Made by a program: the position numbers and the translations under genes. DNA of 5,690 nt from a virus: positions 1 to 5,690 of the IMG/VR virus record IMGVR_UViG_3300045988_031857, one strand, 5' to 3'. The notes beneath the pieces are model-generated. The model was not told the origin of the DNA, did no database searches, and saw only the letters and a list, made by a program, of their open reading frames with translations. This document shows positions 1-5,690 of the stretch, one piece after another; positions within the stretch are counted from its first letter, which is position 1, and each line of letters starts with the position of its first letter.

Positions 1-85
1 GTTTTTTTTTTTTTTTGGTAAAATGGAACTATAAACAAAATTATCGAAAGGAGGTTGAAAAAAATGGTAACTATGCAGGACATCA
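1..85. repeat. Terminal redundancy (copy 1) marking a circular genome. Bases 1-85 equal 5606-5690, giving a unit length of 5605 nt.
   Basis: Base-by-base comparison: G + T15 + GGTAAAATGGAACTATAAACAAAATTATCGAAAGGAGGTTGAAAAAAATGGTAACTATGCAGGACATCA occurs at both window ends. The repeat cuts through a terminator (stem at 5583-5606, T-tract at 2-16) and through the 5' end of an ORF, as expected for an assembly overlap rather than a biological repeat. Confidence 0.95.
16..24 (+). promoter_or_regulatory. Possible extended -10 promoter (TGgTAAAAT) immediately after the terminator T-tract. It would drive the 64->3895 gene chain.
   Basis: TGGTAAAAT at 16-24 (duplicate at 5621-5629) matches TGnTATAAT at 8 of 9 defined positions, and a T-rich tract lies upstream. 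There is no good -35 box. The predicted start near 31 lies upstream of the AGGAGG at 49-54. Confidence 0.3.
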
Positions 86-171
86 ACGCAATTTTCAGGC
101 ATCTCAAGAAAATCCTGGACATGCTGGATAAGATTTACAACGCACTGGAACACGACAAGGAGGAAGAGTAA
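64..171 (+). CDS. Hypothetical 35-aa peptide MVTMQDINAIFRHLKKILDMLDKIYNALEHDKEEE. It looks like a single amphipathic helix with an acidic tail; function unknown.
   Basis: AGGAGG at 49-54 sits 9 nt before the ATG at 64. The stop TAA at 169-171 overlaps the next ATG (TAATG), which suggests translational coupling. It is too short for the supplied ORF track. I recognise no family. Confidence 0.55.
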   Translation: MVTMQDINAIFRHLKKILDMLDKIYNALEHDKEEE

Positions 172-290
172 TGGCATACCGCAGCACTGTAAAACCGAAG
201 ACCGACAAGAAGGTGTTCACCAACACGGCAAAAAAGACCAAAAAAATCAATGTCAATCCGAAGCCCAGCAGGGGAGGAATCCGACTGTGA
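171..290 (+). CDS. Small basic DNA-binding/packaging peptide (gokushovirus ORF8 type, the phiX174 protein J analogue), 39 aa: MAYRSTVKPKTDKKVFTNTAKKTKKINVNPKPSRGGIRL.
   Basis: GGAGG at 159-163 sits 7 nt before the ATG at 171. The peptide is highly basic and ends in the RGGxR(L/F) C-terminus. It also carries the K-x-F-x-x-TA-x-x-T-x-x-x-N pattern that I recall from Chlamydia-phage, SpV4 and gut gokushovirus ORF8 peptides. Not in the ORF track (under 60 aa). Confidence 0.85.
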   Translation: MAYRSTVKPKTDKKVFTNTAKKTKKINVNPKPSRGGIRL

Positions 291-487
291 AAAGCATCAG
301 GAACATGGCATGCTGCACACTGACAGTCAGACTGAGATACGACACAGCAGCCGAAATTGATGATCTGGCGGAAGAACTGGGATGCAGCGTGCCGGCAGCG
401 ACACGAAAAGCAATCGAATATGGGATGAGATATCACAAAAAAGATATCATCAACGAAGTTATGGAGGATAACAACAATGACCTTTGA
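287..487 (+). CDS. 66-aa protein with a ribbon-helix-helix (CopG/Arc/MetJ-like) sequence pattern; putative DNA-binding regulator.
   Basis: A GTG start at 287 lies exactly 9 nt after GGAGG (273-277), the same spacing seen for three other genes here. It overlaps the upstream stop (GTGA). TLTVRL looks like a beta-strand, DTAAEIDDLAEELG like helix A, and CSVPAATRKAIEYGMRYH like helix B (G-x-S ... IR-x-A pattern). An alternative ATG start lies at 305. The fold assignment is by eye only. Confidence 0.7.
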   Translation: MKSIRNMACCTLTVRLRYDTAAEIDDLAEELGCSVPAATRKAIEYGMRYHKKDIINEVMEDNNNDL

Positions 488-734
488 ACTTTATGCAATC
501 AAGGACGAACTGGCGGGCACCTTCGGCAACATCATGGTCATCAATCCGATCGTCAAAGAACGCACCTTCAAGTGGATGACACAGGAGATGGAGAAAAGCG
601 ACTGCGAGGATAAGCGGGTCTACCACCTGGGACAGTACGACACCGAAACTGGCCTGATCACGCCGTGCATGCCGGAGCTGGAATGGAACATCGAGCAGGT
701 CAAGAAGACCATGGAGGAAAAAAAGGATGGTTAA
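477..734 (+). CDS. VP5: VP5-like non-structural protein of gokushoviruses, 85 aa (proposed functional analogue of phiX174 protein C).
   Basis: GGAGG at 463-467 sits 9 nt before the ATG at 477, which overlaps the upstream gene by 11 nt. The pattern LYAIKD...G.F......N....ER.F ... YHLGQYDTETG...P matches the VP5 signature I recall ([FY]-x-[IV]-x-D ... A-x-R-x-F ... L-x-x-x-G-x-[FY]-D-x-x-TG). Confidence 0.7.
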   Translation: MTFELYAIKDELAGTFGNIMVINPIVKERTFKWMTQEMEKSDCEDKRVYHLGQYDTETGLITPCMPELEWNIEQVKKTMEEKKDG

Positions 735-1218
735 AATCTTTACACCCTATGAAGATGAAAAACCAAAAAAGAAGCCGAACGAGCCGGGAAATATTATGGA
801 GCCGCAATACAGAGAGCGGTACGATGAAGACGGCAGACCTTACCTTGAACAGGTCGGAGAGGTCAACACGTATGAAAAAATCCAAAGCTACAAAGACGAA
901 GTCGACCCCATGAGCATCCTAGCAAGGTATGCAGCAGGTGATACAACGGTCATGGCTAATCCTGGCTGGTACATCGACACCAGCAAGCTGCCTGCAAACT
1001 ACATCGAATGGCGAAACCTGATGAACGAGCAAAAAGAAAAGTTCGAGACACTGCCGCTGGAAATCCGAAACAAATTCAACAACAGCTTTGACCAGTGGGC
1101 AGCAACCGCAGGAGAAGAAAGCTGGATGAAGGCAATGGGGTTTGAAAAACAGCAAGACGCACAAACAGAGCCAGCTGCAGCAACGGAAACGATTGTCCAA
1201 AAAGGAGAAAATAAATGA
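727..1218 (+). CDS. VP3: Internal scaffolding protein VP3, 163 aa.
   Basis: GGAGG at 713-717 sits 9 nt before the ATG at 727. The position immediately upstream of VP1 and the ATGA overlap with the VP1 start fit VP3. The motifs IQSYKDEVD, ILARYAAGDTTV and FETLPLEIRNKFNNSFDQW resemble the Chlamydia-phage-type scaffold family. Confidence 0.85.
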   Translation: MVKIFTPYEDEKPKKKPNEPGNIMEPQYRERYDEDGRPYLEQVGEVNTYEKIQSYKDEVDPMSILARYAAGDTTVMANPGWYIDTSKLPANYIEWRNLMNEQKEKFETLPLEIRNKFNNSFDQWAATAGEESWMKAMGFEKQQDAQTEPAAATETIVQKGENK

Positions 1219-2909
1219 ACAGAAATAGCGAACAGCATTATAACCAGGTACCACACGCAGAAATCCGGCGAAGCCGTTTCAAAAGAGATTTTTCGCTGCT
1301 GACCACACTCAACGAAGGCGACCTAGTACCGATCTACGTGGACGAGGTATTGCCCGGCGATACCTTCAAGATCGATGTAAACGGCCTAGTGCGCATGGCC
1401 ACTCCGCTGTATCCAGTTATGGATAACTGTAACATGGATATTTTCTTCTTCTTCGTACCGTGCCGACTGCTCTGGGAACACTTCGTGAACATGATGGGCC
1501 AGAACGACAAAAGCTTCTGGGCCGAAAATGTAGAATACACCACACCAAGAGCAAAAGCACCTACAGGAGGATGGAAAACAGGATCAATCGCAGACTATAT
1601 GGGCATACCAACCGGAGTGGAAAACATCGAAGTAAACCGAATGCCCTTCAATGCCTATGCGAAGATCTGGAACGAGTGGTTCCGGGATGAAAATTTACAA
1701 CAGCCTGTAGACGTGTACACCGGAGACGAAACGCTAACCGAGACACCCGTACACGGACCACTAACAGAGATGGAAAAACCGGAAAGAGGAATAGACATCC
1801 TCAAAGTCTGCAAACACAAAGACTACTTCACCAGCAGTCTACCGCAGCCACAGAAAGGCCAGGCCGTTCCGCTGCCACTGACGGGAAATGCACCGTTAAG
1901 AGCTTACAACACACAAGAACTAAACCAACAAAAAATAGGAACAGGCTTTTTTAACAACGAATATAACACCGGAGTTGTAAACCACACAAGTATATCGTTC
2001 ACAAAACAAGGAACGAAATTCTCCGTAAACAAAAACAACAACGGAAACACAGCACCGACAAGCGAAGGGCAGTATCTCGAGACAATGAGCCAAGACGATG
2101 CAAATTTTCTTGACGCATGGTTAGGCACAGACCTCACAACAGTAACCGCAACCACGATCAACGAACTTCGCAACGCCATCGCAGTGCAGCACATCCTGGA
2201 ACGAGACGCACGAACCGGAACCAGGTACAAAGAAATCCTAAAAGGGGCCTGGGGTGTAACCTCACCGGACGCACGACTTGACCGAAGCGAATACATCGGC
2301 GGATACAGAATGCCGATAAACATAAATCAAGTCATTCAAACATCAAGCAGCAGCCAGATCAGCCCGCAGGGCAACACAGCAGCATACAGCATGACAACCA
2401 TGTCCAAACACATGTGCACATACAGCGCAACAGAGCACGGCTATGTCCTGGGCCTGTGCTGCGTGCGAGTAGATCACAGCTATCAGCAAGGATTGAGCAA
2501 ACTGTGGACGAGAAGCACACGGTTCAGCTATTATGACCCGATGCTTGCAAACCTGGGAGAACAGCCGGTGCTCAATCAGGAAATCTATGCACAGGGCAGC
2601 GAAAAAGACGAGGAGGTTTTCGGCTACCAGGAGGCCTGGGCCGATTACAGGTACCGCACAAACATGGTAACATCCGAAATGCGGAGCACCTACGCACAGA
2701 GCCTGGATGCCTGGCACTATGCAGACCACTACACGAGCCTGCCGACACTCTCAAGCGACTGGATCAAAGAAGGCAGCGAGAACATCGCCAGAACGCTGGC
2801 AGTTGAAGACACCAACCACAACTATCAGTTCATCTGCAACTTTTACTTTGACCAAACCTGGACACGGCCCATGCCGATCTACAGCGTGCCTGGCCTTGAT
2901 ACGATCTAA
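1215..2909 (+). CDS. VP1: Major capsid protein VP1 (phiX174 F-protein family), 564 aa.
   Basis: The N-terminus has the hallmark QVPHAEIRRSRF...TTLNEGDLVPIYVDEVLPGDTF. Downstream lie INELRNAIAVQHILERDARTGTRYKEIL and RLDRSEYIGG. Both size and gene order are typical of gokushovirus VP1. Confidence 0.97.
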   Translation: MNRNSEQHYNQVPHAEIRRSRFKRDFSLLTTLNEGDLVPIYVDEVLPGDTFKIDVNGLVRMATPLYPVMDNCNMDIFFFFVPCRLLWEHFVNMMGQNDKSFWAENVEYTTPRAKAPTGGWKTGSIADYMGIPTGVENIEVNRMPFNAYAKIWNEWFRDENLQQPVDVYTGDETLTETPVHGPLTEMEKPERGIDILKVCKHKDYFTSSLPQPQKGQAVPLPLTGNAPLRAYNTQELNQQKIGTGFFNNEYNTGVVNHTSISFTKQGTKFSVNKNNNGNTAPTSEGQYLETMSQDDANFLDAWLGTDLTTVTATTINELRNAIAVQHILERDARTGTRYKEILKGAWGVTSPDARLDRSEYIGGYRMPININQVIQTSSSSQISPQGNTAAYSMTTMSKHMCTYSATEHGYVLGLCCVRVDHSYQQGLSKLWTRSTRFSYYDPMLANLGEQPVLNQEIYAQGSEKDEEVFGYQEAWADYRYRTNMVTSEMRSTYAQSLDAWHYADHYTSLPTLSSDWIKEGSENIARTLAVEDTNHNYQFICNFYFDQTWTRPMPIYSVPGLDTI

Positions 2910-2920
2910 GGAGGTGCACA

Positions 2921-3895
2921 ATGGCAGGATGGGGAGCAATCGCTTTACAGCTACTGCCGAGCGTGGTAGGAGCCCTGGGAAACGTTGCAAGCAGCTATAT
3001 CAACTCGAAAGGGTCAAACAGCAGCGCAATGAACCAAAGCACCATGAACCAACAGGTTGGAAACACGACCATGTCAGGAAACATGAGCCAAGCAACCGGA
3101 ACCCAAGGCGGACAGGTAACGCAGGGTAACACGTCTGGAATATCAGACATCCTGGGAAAGGCTTTAACAGGCATCACGGGAAACAACTCAGGGGCAGCAG
3201 CCAACTTTAACGCCGGACAGGCACAGACCGCAAACAATCTCCAGAACGGACAGTGGGCACTAGGAAATCTAATAAACCTATGGTCAAACGCCAGGGCAAA
3301 CGAGCTGACAGCACAGAGCCAAGCTTCAGCAATGGCATTTAACCGGGAAGAGAGCCAAAAAAATCGAGACTGGCAACAGATGATGTCCAGCACAGCCTAC
3401 CAAAGAGGGGTAGAAGACCTAAAGAAAGCAGGTCTGAACCCAGCACTGGCAGCATACAACGGATTTGGTGCAAGCTCAGGCAGCGGAGGCCAGGCAGCTG
3501 TAGGAAACACAACCTTTAGCCACGCTCAAGCATCAGGAGTTCCAGCAGCACACACGGCCACCATGCAAGCGATGTACGACTACGGGAACAATACATCTCA
3601 GTTCCTGCAGAACGCCATGCAGGCGATCAACACAGCAAAGGAAACAAAAAACTGGGAAGAAGCCGGTTACATGCAAAGTATCATGCAGAATATCGGCTCA
3701 ACATCAGCAAAGACCGTTGGAAACATCGCACAGACCGCAAACAACACCTACAACAACGAACAGTCTGGCAGACAGACTAAAACGCCGACAACCGTAGAAG
3801 CAGGCAAAAAGCTCACAGACGCTGGAAACAATGCGAAAACGAAGGCAGCAGGTGCAGCCCTGTACGGTCTCGGAAAAGCAATGCGAAAATGGTAA
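2921..3895 (+). CDS. VP2: Minor capsid / DNA pilot protein VP2, 324 aa.
   Basis: GGAGG at 2910-2914 sits 6 nt before the ATG. It has a hydrophobic N-terminus (WGAIALQLLPSVVGALGNVA) and a body rich in N, Q, G, S, T and A. The conserved MMSSTAYQRGVEDLKKAGLNPALA motif is typical of gokushovirus VP2, and the gene lies directly after VP1. Confidence 0.9.
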   Translation: MAGWGAIALQLLPSVVGALGNVASSYINSKGSNSSAMNQSTMNQQVGNTTMSGNMSQATGTQGGQVTQGNTSGISDILGKALTGITGNNSGAAANFNAGQAQTANNLQNGQWALGNLINLWSNARANELTAQSQASAMAFNREESQKNRDWQQMMSSTAYQRGVEDLKKAGLNPALAAYNGFGASSGSGGQAAVGNTTFSHAQASGVPAAHTATMQAMYDYGNNTSQFLQNAMQAINTAKETKNWEEAGYMQSIMQNIGSTSAKTVGNIAQTANNTYNNEQSGRQTKTPTTVEAGKKLTDAGNNAKTKAAGAALYGLGKAMRKW

Positions 3896-3924
3896 TTGAC
3901 AGACACAAAAAGGAGGTGTATAAT
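3896..3924 (+). promoter_or_regulatory. Promoter P1: perfect sigma70 consensus, TTGACA (3896-3901), 17-nt spacer, TATAAT (3919-3924).
   Basis: Read directly from the sequence. It begins the base after the VP2 stop (TAA 3893-3895). The predicted start near 3931 lies upstream of the 3966 ORF and rep. Confidence 0.8.
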
Positions 3925-3965
3925 ATGGGTGTAAGAATCGCACACCTAAAGTAGGAGGGCATACC

Positions 3966-4133
3966 ATGAGAAGCCAAATGGCAAAAAGAATGAACATCAA
4001 CCTAACACAAAAACAAATCGAAGAACTAGAGTTCATCAAAACATGCAAACTGTATGATAAATACATCGACAGCGATATCATAAGGGATGCAATTGATGTA
4101 TACGCAGAAGCGCTAGGGTACAAAACAGCATGA
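3966..4133 (+). CDS. 55-aa protein with an RHH-like pattern (MRSQMAKRMNINLTQKQIEELEFIKTCKLYDKYIDSDIIRDAIDVYAEALGYKTA); putative small regulator upstream of rep.
   Basis: GGAGG at 3954-3958 sits 7 nt before the ATG at 3966, and this is the first ORF after promoter P1. RMNINLT looks like a beta-strand, QKQIEELEFIK like helix A and SDIIRDAIDVYAEAL like helix B. Not in the ORF track (under 60 aa). The fold call is by eye and weaker than for 287-487. Confidence 0.65.
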   Translation: MRSQMAKRMNINLTQKQIEELEFIKTCKLYDKYIDSDIIRDAIDVYAEALGYKTA

Positions 4134-4208
4134 GTTACGGCTACCGCCTCACTCAGGGAAGCAACATTTATCCATCACGAGAAGCGAGCAGCATCTAAAT
4201 TTTGTGTC

Positions 4209-4249
4209 AATGGGCCCCAATAAGATCAAGAAGGTTATTGGGGCCCATT
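4209..4249. repeat. Perfect inverted repeat / hairpin: AATGGGCCCCAATAA (4209-4223), an 11-nt loop GATCAAGAAGG, then TTATTGGGGCCCATT (4235-4249).
   Basis: The two 15-nt arms are exact reverse complements. The repeat ends 6 nt before the rep AGGAGG (4256-4261). No T-run follows it, so it is not a canonical intrinsic terminator. Confidence 0.9.
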
Positions 4250-4273
4250 CAGGGAAGGAGGAATGAAACATCT

Positions 4274-5377
4274 ATGCCATGTACGAGGCCGTTGGTTAGA
4301 ACCGTCATCAACAGACAAGAAAGAGTTGTCAGCCTGAAGGCATACTTATCAAAAACAGGCGAAAGGCTAGAGTTTGACGCAGATCAAAGACAGCAGAAGT
4401 GGAACGAACAGCGAGTTAAAAAGCTGCTCAAAGAACAGAATGCTCAGCTGCTACCATGCGGGCACTGTCCTGGATGCAAAATGGCAAACGCAGCATCATG
4501 GGCGAACCGAATGGAAATGGAGCTACCATACCATGAAAACGCCTGGTTTCTAACACTCACATATGATAACGAAAATGTCCCATATCGAGCGACATGGGAC
4601 ACACTGACAGGCGAAGTGATAACAGAAAACCTCAGTCTATGCTATGAGGACATGCAAAGATTCTGGAAACGATTGAGAAGGCACATAGAATACCACGAAA
4701 AAGGAAAAGGAAAGCTGATGTATTTCCAAGCTGGCGAATACGGCAGCCAAACACACAGACCACACTATCACGCAATCGTATACGATCTACCAATAAAACA
4801 GGAAGATTTAAAAGTTTACAAGAAAGAAAGAGGATTCACGTGCTATAACTGCGAATGGCTAGAAAAAATCTGGGGCATGGGACACGTCATCCTAGCACCA
4901 GCAGAATGGCGATCTATGGCATACACAGCAAGGTACACAACAAAAAAGATTTACGGAAAGGACGGCAAAAAATTTTATGAAGAACTAGGTATCATGCCGG
5001 AACAGTGCAATATGAGCAAAAAACCGGCAATCGGCGCACAATACTACTATGACCATGCAGCGGAAATCTACGAAAAAGATCAAATACAGCTAAAGAACGG
5101 AAAAATCTGTAAACCGCCAAGATACTTTGACAAGCTATTTGACATCGACCATGGAGCAAAGCCACTGACAGATGAAGAAGTGCAAAAAATCGAGGATATA
5201 ACAGAAAAAACCGAATCCGAAGAACTGAAAGCAATCAAACGAGAACGCCGAAGAATCGCAAACGACACTCTCTTTGCTCAGCTCAAGCAGACCGGCCTGA
5301 CCATGCAAGATTATTATAAACTGAAAGACGAAAAAATACAAGAACGAATGAGCAAATTGATTCGCACAGAGGTCTAG
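4274..5377 (+). CDS. VP4: Replication initiation protein VP4 (HUH rolling-circle endonuclease, phiX174 A-protein superfamily), 367 aa from the ATG at 4274.
   Basis: It carries PCGHCPGCKMANAASWANR (Cys cluster), FLTLTYD (motif 1), RPHYHAIVY (HUH, HYH at 4763-4771) and AYTARYTTKK (Y-x-x-x-Y-x-x-K, Tyr codons at 4922 and 4934). The track's start at 4202 is a TTG that reads through the hairpin. The ATG at 4274 has AGGAGG 12 nt upstream. The start is less certain than the gene identity. Confidence 0.93.
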   Translation: MPCTRPLVRTVINRQERVVSLKAYLSKTGERLEFDADQRQQKWNEQRVKKLLKEQNAQLLPCGHCPGCKMANAASWANRMEMELPYHENAWFLTLTYDNENVPYRATWDTLTGEVITENLSLCYEDMQRFWKRLRRHIEYHEKGKGKLMYFQAGEYGSQTHRPHYHAIVYDLPIKQEDLKVYKKERGFTCYNCEWLEKIWGMGHVILAPAEWRSMAYTARYTTKKIYGKDGKKFYEELGIMPEQCNMSKKPAIGAQYYYDHAAEIYEKDQIQLKNGKICKPPRYFDKLFDIDHGAKPLTDEEVQKIEDITEKTESEELKAIKRERRRIANDTLFAQLKQTGLTMQDYYKLKDEKIQERMSKLIRTEV

Positions 5378-5440
5378 GGCATCTACAAACAACGAGAACG
5401 GCCAATAAGAGCACAAACCGAAATCTAACCTAAAAGCTAT

Positions 5441-5482
5441 GCTGTCCTCTATTCGTCGGCCGACCACGGCCGACCGGACAGC
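5441..5482. repeat. GC-rich composite stem-loop. The outer stem is GCTGTCC (5441-5447) / GGACAGC (5476-5482). The inner stem is GTCGGCCG (5455-5462) / CGGCCGAC (5467-5474) with loop ACCA.
   Basis: Complementarity was checked base by base. There are 15 bp in total, with an asymmetric internal loop (TCTATTC against C). It is a GC island in the otherwise A-rich rep-downstream intergenic region, about 20 nt upstream of the P2 -35 box. Confidence 0.8.
5457..5475. repeat. Tandem direct repeat CGGCCGACC-A-CGGCCGACC (10-nt period). The first copy lies within the 10-nt palindrome GTCGGCCGAC (5455-5464).
   Basis: Read directly from the sequence. This is the same DNA as the inner stem above, so it can act either as a hairpin in ssDNA or as a repeated site on one face of the helix in dsDNA. 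Confidence 0.85.
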
Positions 5483-5501
5483 CAAAAAATTAAAATAATA
5501 C

Positions 5502-5530
5502 TTGACAAGTGTATATTTTAGGTGTATAAT
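5502..5530 (+). promoter_or_regulatory. Promoter P2: perfect sigma70 consensus, TTGACA (5502-5507), 17-nt spacer, TATAAT (5525-5530), with an A/T-rich UP-like tract at 5484-5500.
   Basis: Read directly from the sequence. It shares the 12-mer AGGTGTATAATA (5520-5531) with P1 (3914-3925). Confidence 0.8.
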
Positions 5531-5536
5531 AGATGC

Positions 5537-5621
5537 AATCTGTGAAAAACTCAAAGAATACGAAACAAATAACTAAAATCAGCAAGGTGGACAAAATCCC
5601 ACCTTGTTTTTTTTTTTTTTT
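5537..5621 (+). ncRNA. Candidate short transcript (roughly 76-85 nt) from the P2 start to the intrinsic terminator. Alternatively it is a leader/attenuator for the downstream operon.
   Basis: This is defined only by P2 lying next to the terminator. The body (5537-5582) is A-rich with no obvious internal structure, and the 3' end is a hairpin plus U-tail. The boundaries are predicted, not observed. Confidence 0.3.
5583..5621 (+). terminator. Rho-independent terminator: stem CAAGGTGG (5583-5590) / CCACCTTG (5599-5606), 8-nt loop ACAAAATC, followed by T15 (5607-5621, equal to 2-16).
   Basis: The stem complementarity was checked base by base, and the T-run is an uninterrupted 15 T. It is the only hairpin-plus-T-tract I can find on the + strand, so it probably ends rep and whole-genome transcripts. 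It straddles the linearisation point. Confidence 0.85.
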
Positions 5622-5690
5622 GGTAAAATGGAACTATAAACAAAATTATCGAAAGGAGGTTGAAAAAAATGGTAACTATGCAGGACATCA
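5606..5690. repeat. Terminal redundancy (copy 2). It includes a truncated second copy of the 64-171 ORF start (ATG at 5669).
   Basis: Identical to 1-85 (see above). Confidence 0.95.

Follow-up and report, generated by a model that had tools for sequence, protein, structure and literature searches.

Among the ssDNA phages of gut and aquatic viromes, gokushoviruses are the most abundant. The initiators of rolling-circle replication that are relevant here belong to the HUH nucleases, which cut single-stranded DNA, and many rolling-circle replicons have their origin upstream of rep. The phiX174-type origin is a linear element of 30 nt that consists of a key sequence, an AT spacer and a recognition sequence and lies inside the initiator gene; the packaged strand of phiX174 is the coding strand. 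In the phiX174 record, the origin of viral-strand synthesis is annotated at 4306, within CAACTTG/ATATTAATAAC (here and below, the slash marks the annotated or predicted nick). The Reps of pC194/pUB110-family plasmids have one Tyr plus Glu. The heptamer CTTGATA is present in the rolling-circle origin sequence of pC194 (PMC7072734).

For gokushoviruses, our search of the full-text literature found no account of an origin or of the hairpin treated here; the classical SpV4, Chp2 and phiMH2K papers were outside its reach, and an older mention is possible. The EC6098 paper and the global-diversity paper mention neither of the two, and the PhiCA82 paper contains only the general statement that Rep binds the origin. 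Hairpins have been described in other Microviridae, and the authors link them tentatively to complementary-strand priming and leave their function open (PMC9865509). Here, we analysed a 5,690-nt stretch of viral DNA (positions 1 to 5,690 of the IMG/VR record IMGVR_UViG_3300045988_031857; the whole stretch is called the window). A prediction made earlier from its letters (the original prediction) had drawn attention to a perfect palindrome next to the ribosome-binding site of rep, and had offered four roles for it: a dyad operator, an mRNA structure, a complementary-strand priming signal and a Rep recognition element.

Results

A perfect hairpin in front of rep

The window is a complete circular genome of the gokushovirus type, in which an exact 85-nt terminal overlap closes a circle of 5,605 nt. 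All recognisable genes are on the plus strand. The features are, in order of position:

477-734, plus strand: ORF5
727-1218, plus strand: VP3 scaffold, Chp2-type
1215-2909, plus strand: F/VP1 capsid
2921-3895, plus strand: VP2
3896-3924, plus strand: sigma-70 promoter TTGACA-17-TATAAT, 12/12, a consensus match only
3966-4133, plus strand: 55-aa ORF from the ORF list, called RHH-like in the original prediction; no Pfam/PHROG match
4163-4175, plus strand: clade-specific motif AACATTTATCCAT (AACAnnnnTCCAT), about 30 nt from the flank motif
4202-4209, minus strand: flank motif TGACACAA (TTGTGTCA on the plus strand), candidate Rep recognition sequence, directly adjoining the 3' side of the hairpin as read on this strand
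4209-4223: 5' arm in plus-strand coordinates (3' arm on the minus strand), AATGGGCCCCAATAA, 15/15 complementary to its partner and covarying with it
4224-4234, minus strand: loop of 11 nt, CCTTCTTGATC (plus strand: GATCAAGAAGG); its homologues in other gokushoviruses are the ..CTNCTTGAT.. loops
4225-4230, minus strand: CTTGAT, predicted Rep nick core, an exact minus-strand match with the predicted cut between G (4227) and A (4226)
4235-4249: 3' arm in plus-strand coordinates, TTATTGGGGCCCATT, with 15/15 complementarity and covariation
4253-4261, plus strand: SD of rep, GGAAGGAGG, with the AGGAGG core at 4256-4261, read from the sequence
4274-5377, plus strand: Rep/VP4, HUH rolling-circle initiator (Pfam PF23343, 2e-15; PHROG 942, 3e-96)

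Rep carries the HUH motif H164-Y-H166 (RPHYHAI) and, four residues apart, the tyrosines Y217 and Y221; these residues are invariant in the alignments, Chp2 included. In hhalign, the Rep profile matched that of phiX174 gpA with 92.6% probability over the HUH motif, the tyrosine region being outside the aligned stretch. A Pfam search of Rep found no SF3 helicase domain. Translation of rep almost certainly starts at ATG 4274, downstream of the SD (4253-4261). The ORF track, in contrast, contains a call of 391 aa that starts at TTG 4202 and reads through the hairpin, masking it as had been pointed out originally; since this TTG lies inside the conserved TTGTGTCA flank, the call overextends Rep. 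With the promoter at 3896-3924 upstream of it, the hairpin is inside the rep transcript. This promoter and the strong SD sequences suggest that the host uses canonical sigma-70 promoters and SD-led initiation. The two small ORFs with an RHH-like beta-strand/helix/helix pattern (3966-4133 and 287-487) had no significant match in Pfam or PHROG, the best one being RHH_1 with E = 0.08 for the 66-aa ORF.

The geometry of the palindrome was as predicted: a 15/15 perfect stem (4209-4223 with 4235-4249), an 11-nt loop and a stem end at 4249, about 6 nt upstream of the SD with its AGGAGG core at 4256-4261. It was the sole inverted repeat of at least 10 nt in a scan of the whole window. In 200 dinucleotide-preserving shuffles (loop of 3-20 nt) the longest perfect stem had a mean of 7.7 bp and a maximum of 11 bp, which bears out the claim that the palindrome is far beyond chance. 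The proposed calculation of folding energies gave -15.7 kcal/mol for the ssDNA hairpin (z = -4.8; 0/200 shuffles were equally stable) and -31.5 kcal/mol for the RNA in a 96-nt context. The absence of a T-tract also held, as neither strand has a T-run and no terminator was called at the hairpin; we rejected an intrinsic (rho-independent) terminator, in which a T-tract follows a G+C-rich stem. A reading of TTGTGTCA/ATCAAG as the -35 and -10 elements of a promoter was rejected too, their spacing being wrong. No Rfam family matched the hairpin, and there were no convincing direct repeats of the iteron kind flanking the stem. The flank 8-mer has a single exact occurrence in the window. CTTGAT is found at four further places, all within genes, which corresponds to the chance level (expected 3.8).

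Two other repeats lie nearby. A second, imperfect hairpin (GAGTTACGGCTACCGCCTCACTC) occupies 4132-4154, before the motif at 4163-4175, and relatives (e.g. L009) have a perfect stem of other sequence there. Furthermore, both hairpins are followed by a copy of a 27-nt direct repeat (CAYTCAGGGAAG...; 4150-4176 and 4246-4272), the copies being 70% identical and separated by 96 nt. Either a small duplication or chance could account for it.

Conservation and covariation in close relatives

A search of IMG/VR with Rep returned 55 loci with 32-97% identity. The original prediction had named conservation with compensatory changes as a check of the structure, and both were found: a perfect hairpin of 12-19 bp is present in 50/50 close relatives at the same site, 20-30 nt before the rep ATG, and 14 of the 18 stem pairs change on both sides in an alignment of 21 sequences. 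A covariance model built on 21 relatives had one plus-strand match per genome in 50/50 close relatives (56-88 bits), with a palindromic echo on the other strand. Standard pairs filled 94.7% of the cells, compared with 79% in shuffles (0/500 reached the observed value) and 30-48% with slid partner columns. G.U-type pairs were found in 1/376 cells of the 21-sequence alignment, and mismatches in 1.4% of the pair cells across 114 unique modules. The stems themselves differ outright among subclades (AATGGGCCCCAATAAC, TCACCTAGCCCCAATAAC, AGTGGGGGGAATAGAC and CACTGGGGGGAAATGT). The relatives have one additional stem pair (C-G or G-C, leaving a 9-nt loop), at a position where the window has a G.G mismatch.

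The unpaired parts behave differently from the stem. Among close relatives, neither the loop core TCAAGA nor the 5' flank TTGTGTCA varies; the plus-strand loop ATCAAGAGG is nearly invariant, as is the core ATCAAGA(G/A)G in the 50 relatives. The GATC to which the original prediction had pointed is indeed in the window loop but is not conserved, most relatives having CATC instead. The purine-rich SD is conserved in the relatives as well. Because the stem covaries while the sequences of loop and flank are fixed, we read this pattern as the signature of a structure-presented recognition site, in which selection maintains base pairing in the stem and the sequence itself where the DNA is unpaired.

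A stem-loop module in two orientations

In distant gokushoviruses, the strongest hairpin of each genome has a coding-strand loop ..CTCTTGAT.., followed by (G)TGACAC. This module is carried in the forward orientation by Chp2 (2904-2941, loop TCTACTTGAT), KT264760, Dulem virus 186, MG945454 and about 140 others, and SpV4 probably has the same coding-strand hairpin. The coding-strand module of these distant genomes is the reverse complement of the TTGTGTCA-stem-ATCAAGAGG-stem arrangement of the window. Read on the minus strand, the arrangement is stem-CCTCTTGAT-stem-TGACACAA, and that of the window itself is stem-CCTTCTTGATC-stem-(T)GACACAA. The pattern of the module can thus be given as a strictly Watson-Crick hairpin with the loop ..C-T-N-C-T-T-G-A-T.. 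and TGACAC directly 3'. The window has the ..CTNCTTGAT.. loop with TGACAC on its 3' side, in a single copy and in non-coding DNA. From these sequence matches we conclude that the window palindrome is a copy of a stem-loop module common to most gokushoviruses. Both the informative minus-strand reading and the homology to the subfamily-wide module were missed in the original prediction.

We surveyed 229 genomes, with Rep always placed on the plus strand, using a detector that anchors on TGACA and looks for a hairpin directly 5' of it. The module was called in 200/229 genomes, namely forward (on the coding strand) in 146 and inverted in 54, the window included; 29 had no call. Detector scores were 12-23 on the called strand and 0-10 on the other strand. 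As VP1 and Rep were co-oriented wherever both were found, it is the module that changes orientation, against a gene block that stays together. Forward and inverted modules alike are located mostly in the non-coding stretch upstream of rep (upstream of VP1 in a few forward genomes), and in forward genomes the module is often 80-560 nt away from rep. The AACATTTATCCAT/AACAnnnnTCCAT motif is conserved in the 34-genome clade to which the window belongs and is absent from forward genomes.

Several variants of the module were observed. In environmental genomes (L135, L155, L161, L174, L177, L181, L189, L194, L195, L201, L203, L209, L210 and L215), CTAGAT replaces CTTGAT in an otherwise identical module, AGCACAGTTAC-..CTAGAT-GTAACTGTGCT-AGGTGACACC, in which the G/A step is kept; other loop variants are CTTGTT (SpV4, phiMH2K, L204 and L206) and CTTGCT (L124). 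In many genomes, among them the forward genomes L114, L127, L086, L062 and L122, TGACAC forms the first arm of a second small hairpin (TGACACC...GGTGTCA) immediately after the main one, and the full origin region may be a two-hairpin unit. In four contigs (L119, L121, L136 and L137), the module occurs twice, with a spacing of about one genome length; these contigs were probably assembled past one full circle and are not larger genomes. One inverted call in a T-rich sequence, L053 (IMGVR_UViG_3300045988_007630), was set aside because its 6,870-nt locus is part of a 10.9-kb contig with almost the same VP1 as L055, for which no module was called. The contig has roughly double the length of a microvirus genome, and its inverted-type hairpin (4035-4076) closely follows rep. 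L053 may be a chimeric or concatenated assembly.

Possible roles of the module

The module is probably the rolling-circle (viral-strand) origin, which Rep would nick in the loop: the window loop holds the same CTTG/AT core as the annotated nick site of phiX174. Supercoiling of a replicative form allows long perfect palindromes to extrude, so that their loops are exposed. Here, the palindrome would extrude as a cruciform and present the loop as ssDNA, and the HUH protein Rep/VP4 would dock on the stem and the TGACAC flank, TGACAC being the likely docking sequence. Rep would then cut CTTG/AT as protein A of phiX174 does, at the predicted position, and re-ligate the strand after one round. In the window, where the module is opposite all genes, the strand that is nicked, displaced and presumably packaged would be the antisense strand. 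Points against this assignment are that the match to phiX174 comprises the 6-nt core and a few following bases, that the origin of phiX174 itself lies within gene A and forms no hairpin, that the loop also occurs as CTAGAT, CTTGTT and CTTGCT, and that 29/229 genomes are without a call. Among the four roles that had been put forward, the Rep recognition element is favoured by the subfamily-wide conservation of loop and flank, the covarying stem and the phiX174-type nick core in the loop; the operator and the mRNA structure received no support as primary functions.

The hairpin could instead be a complementary-strand origin, a signal on the packaged ssDNA for host primase, primosome or RNA polymerase to begin the second strand. 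It would then resemble the phiX174 n'/PriA site, G4 oric or plasmid ssoA, where a variable stem likewise accompanies a conserved loop. A stable ssDNA hairpin with a conserved loop and a covarying stem would also fit sso-type signals, such a role could coexist with that of a nick site, and PMC9865509 proposes it, while leaving the matter open, for hairpins with a conserved loop that precede Rep in other small microviruses. Yet priming signals are host-specific, while this loop and flank are common to Chp2 and to gut, marine and soil contigs; host priming fits less well because phages of very different hosts share both, and a phage-encoded partner, Rep, is favoured over it because the module is kept across Chlamydia, gut and environmental phages. 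In addition, the loop motif is matched by the nick core of phiX174, whose initiator is homologous, and reading the sequence by eye revealed neither a CTG-type primase start nor an ssoA CS-6/RSB motif. We therefore regard priming as unlikely. As an element of the mRNA 3-6 nt before the SD, the hairpin might tune the translation of rep, protect the transcript or be bound by a protein at the SD-like AAGAGG. The 12/12 promoter at 3896-3924 puts it in the rep leader, its RNA fold is very stable, and throughout the clade of the window it keeps its place beside the SD. Still, the module is reversed relative to the genes in 146 genomes, where the RNA would be the complement, and it is often located 80-560 nt from rep or upstream of VP1. 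RNA helices tolerate G.U pairs, but these are essentially absent from the stem (1/376 cells), nor does Rfam contain a matching family. An mRNA structure is thus very improbable as the primary function, which was one of the original suggestions; a secondary effect on rep expression in the clade of the window is possible.

We give hardly any credence to a dyad operator for a dimeric regulator, which had been envisaged for the RHH-like 55-aa protein and for which the copG-repB arrangement of pMV158 would be the model. A perfect palindrome does adjoin a small ORF with a beta-strand/helix/helix pattern, but this ORF matches no RHH family, and it is the arms that vary freely from clade to clade, whereas fixed sequence is confined to the asymmetric loop and one flank. 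Perfect complementarity over 16-19 bp exceeds what half-sites need. The ORF upstream of the hairpin is replaced by unrelated ORFs in relatives with the same hairpin, identical arms being found behind three different upstream ORFs; conversely, the window and L015 share the C-terminus of the ORF and differ in the distal arms. An operator of the RHH (CopG/Arc) type would have half-sites conserved along with the regulator and would overlap the promoter that it controls; here the arms vary independently of the upstream ORF, and the site is about 285 nt downstream of the sole strong promoter and does not overlap it. A strand-independent DNA site, either for XerCD/dif-like recombination or integration or for a host factor that binds duplex DNA, would explain both orientations without a change of the packaged strand, and dif-like motifs have been found in non-coding regions of some gokushoviruses (PMC7062461). 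Against such a site, the asymmetric loop and the one-sided flank imply a polar element, and a strand-neutral site would not predict a substitution asymmetry that flips with orientation (see below). The dif layout is 11-6-11, which arms of 16-19 bp and a loop of 9-11 nt do not resemble. We consider this explanation very unlikely.

Module orientation, base composition and substitutions

As long as the module acts in a single-strand-specific way, whatever its exact role, its orientation tells which of the two strands becomes single-stranded; in the window this would be the antisense strand. We lean slightly towards the view that a 34-genome gut clade and at least two or three other lineages have their origin opposite the genes and package antisense (negative-sense) ssDNA. 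The clade includes Human gut gokushovirus KX513873 and Dulem virus 202; the other lineages are the L092, L113 and L176/L197 groups.

The coding strand of the window contains 36.6% A and 16.6% T, with 11% T at third codon positions. Its AT skew at 4-fold sites is +0.72, which mirrors the value for phiX174 (-0.75). The AT skew of whole genomes was dropped as a proxy for the packaged strand, since several forward environmental genomes are A-rich, and we used the skew at 4-fold sites and substitution spectra instead. The 4-fold AT skew was positive in 52/54 inverted genomes (medians +0.57 and +0.70) versus 49/145 forward genomes (34%; medians -0.18 and -0.25). Within one gut metagenome, the compositions of the two classes did not overlap. 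Codon-usage selection could contribute to the skew.

The substitution spectra were determined from singletons at 4-fold sites. In forward gut clades, C>T was found at 38/196 C sites and G>A at 2/73 G sites, and in inverted gut clades the corresponding values were 5/127 and 18/122. The ratio of C<->T to G<->A transitions was 69:7 in the forward and 6:52 in the inverted gut clades (Fisher p = 2e-22). Five further inverted groups had C>T and G>A counts in the same direction: 2 vs 22 (L092), 4 vs 12 (KX513873), 3 vs 7 (L113), 0 vs 12 (L176) and 6 vs 14 (L197). Per site, the rate of G>A was higher than that of C>T in 8/8 inverted groups, and the reverse was true for 6/8 forward groups, of which the environmental ones have few singleton counts. 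Among the few mismatches in the stems, G.T and A.C occurred in a ratio of 4 to 3 in forward modules and of about 6 to 1 in inverted modules when L015 and L027 are counted, which gives no clear strand bias.

On the VP1 tree, the inverted state is found in the 34-genome gut clade (100% support, with the window in it), in L092, in the L113 and L176 groups and in L216/L164. This corresponds to about four changes of orientation, so that only 3-4 independent pairs are available, too few to reach significance. One genome is a counter-example: L216 (IMGVR_UViG_3300020043_004275, module at about 4187-4216) has an inverted module and a T-rich coding strand (4-fold AT skew -0.65). It could represent a recent inversion or be evidence against a strand switch; no relative closer than 58% Rep identity was found for it. 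Taken together, the packaging of antisense DNA is supported because synonymous-site skew and substitution spectra flip with the orientation of the module, and weakened because of L216 and the small number of independent inversions.

Discussion

The viral-strand origin of gokushoviruses has apparently never been mapped, and the module described here is a concrete candidate that is common to most of the subfamily. It offers a biologically meaningful choice of zero coordinate and of strand when microvirus genomes are numbered, and it flags ORF calls that wrongly read through the hairpin, such as the 391-aa Rep call. If the inverted lineages do package the antisense strand, they would be the first negative-sense members of Microviridae, and the assumption that all Microviridae are positive-sense would be overturned. 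Replication forks would then run head-on against transcription, strand-specific virome data and analyses of mutation bias would have to be read differently, and the two orientations would provide a natural experiment on how the single-stranded strand shapes base composition.

How does the element compare with known systems? Other Microviridae, the reekeekee- and roodoodooviruses, likewise have a hairpin between the last gene and Rep with an identical loop and compensatory stem changes (PMC9865509). They belong to other clades, and the part of that paper available to us reports neither a CTTGAT loop nor a strand inversion. The phiX174 n' (PriA) site, G4 oric and the plasmid ssoA are stable ssDNA hairpins too, with a conserved loop in ssoA; unlike the window element, they are read by the host, host-specific and unrelated to the nick core of an initiator. 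The double-strand origins of pC194/pUB110-family plasmids share the CTTGAT(A) core (PMC7072734 for pC194) and adjoin rep, but are without a comparable long perfect hairpin or a TGACAC flank. The origins of CRESS-DNA viruses and of pT181/pMV158 resemble the window element in having a conserved nick sequence in the loop of a covarying stem, just upstream of the gene of an HUH enzyme. However, the CRESS-DNA nonanucleotide NANTATTAC is different from the window loop CCTTCTTGATC, no iterons were found in the window, and its Rep lacks an SF3 helicase match. Judged by these features, the window element is not a member of the CRESS-DNA, pT181 or pMV158 origin families.

A further close counterpart is the origin of phiX174. 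The initiators are homologous, with an aligned HUH motif and two tyrosines, and both elements occur once per genome and have the CTTG/AT core followed by an A/T-rich stretch. As in phiX-type origins, a gpA-like HUH initiator and a CTTG/AT core in a conserved context are present. The phiX174 origin, however, is inside gene A, on the coding strand and not in a hairpin, whereas the core in the window and its relatives is in the loop of a 15-19 bp hairpin, intergenic, followed by TGACAC and, in the window, on the non-coding strand. The window element is therefore outside the phiX-type origin as defined, though it may work in a similar way. In our analysis, the module is best explained as an element with the architecture of a stem-loop origin that would function as the phiX174 origin does.
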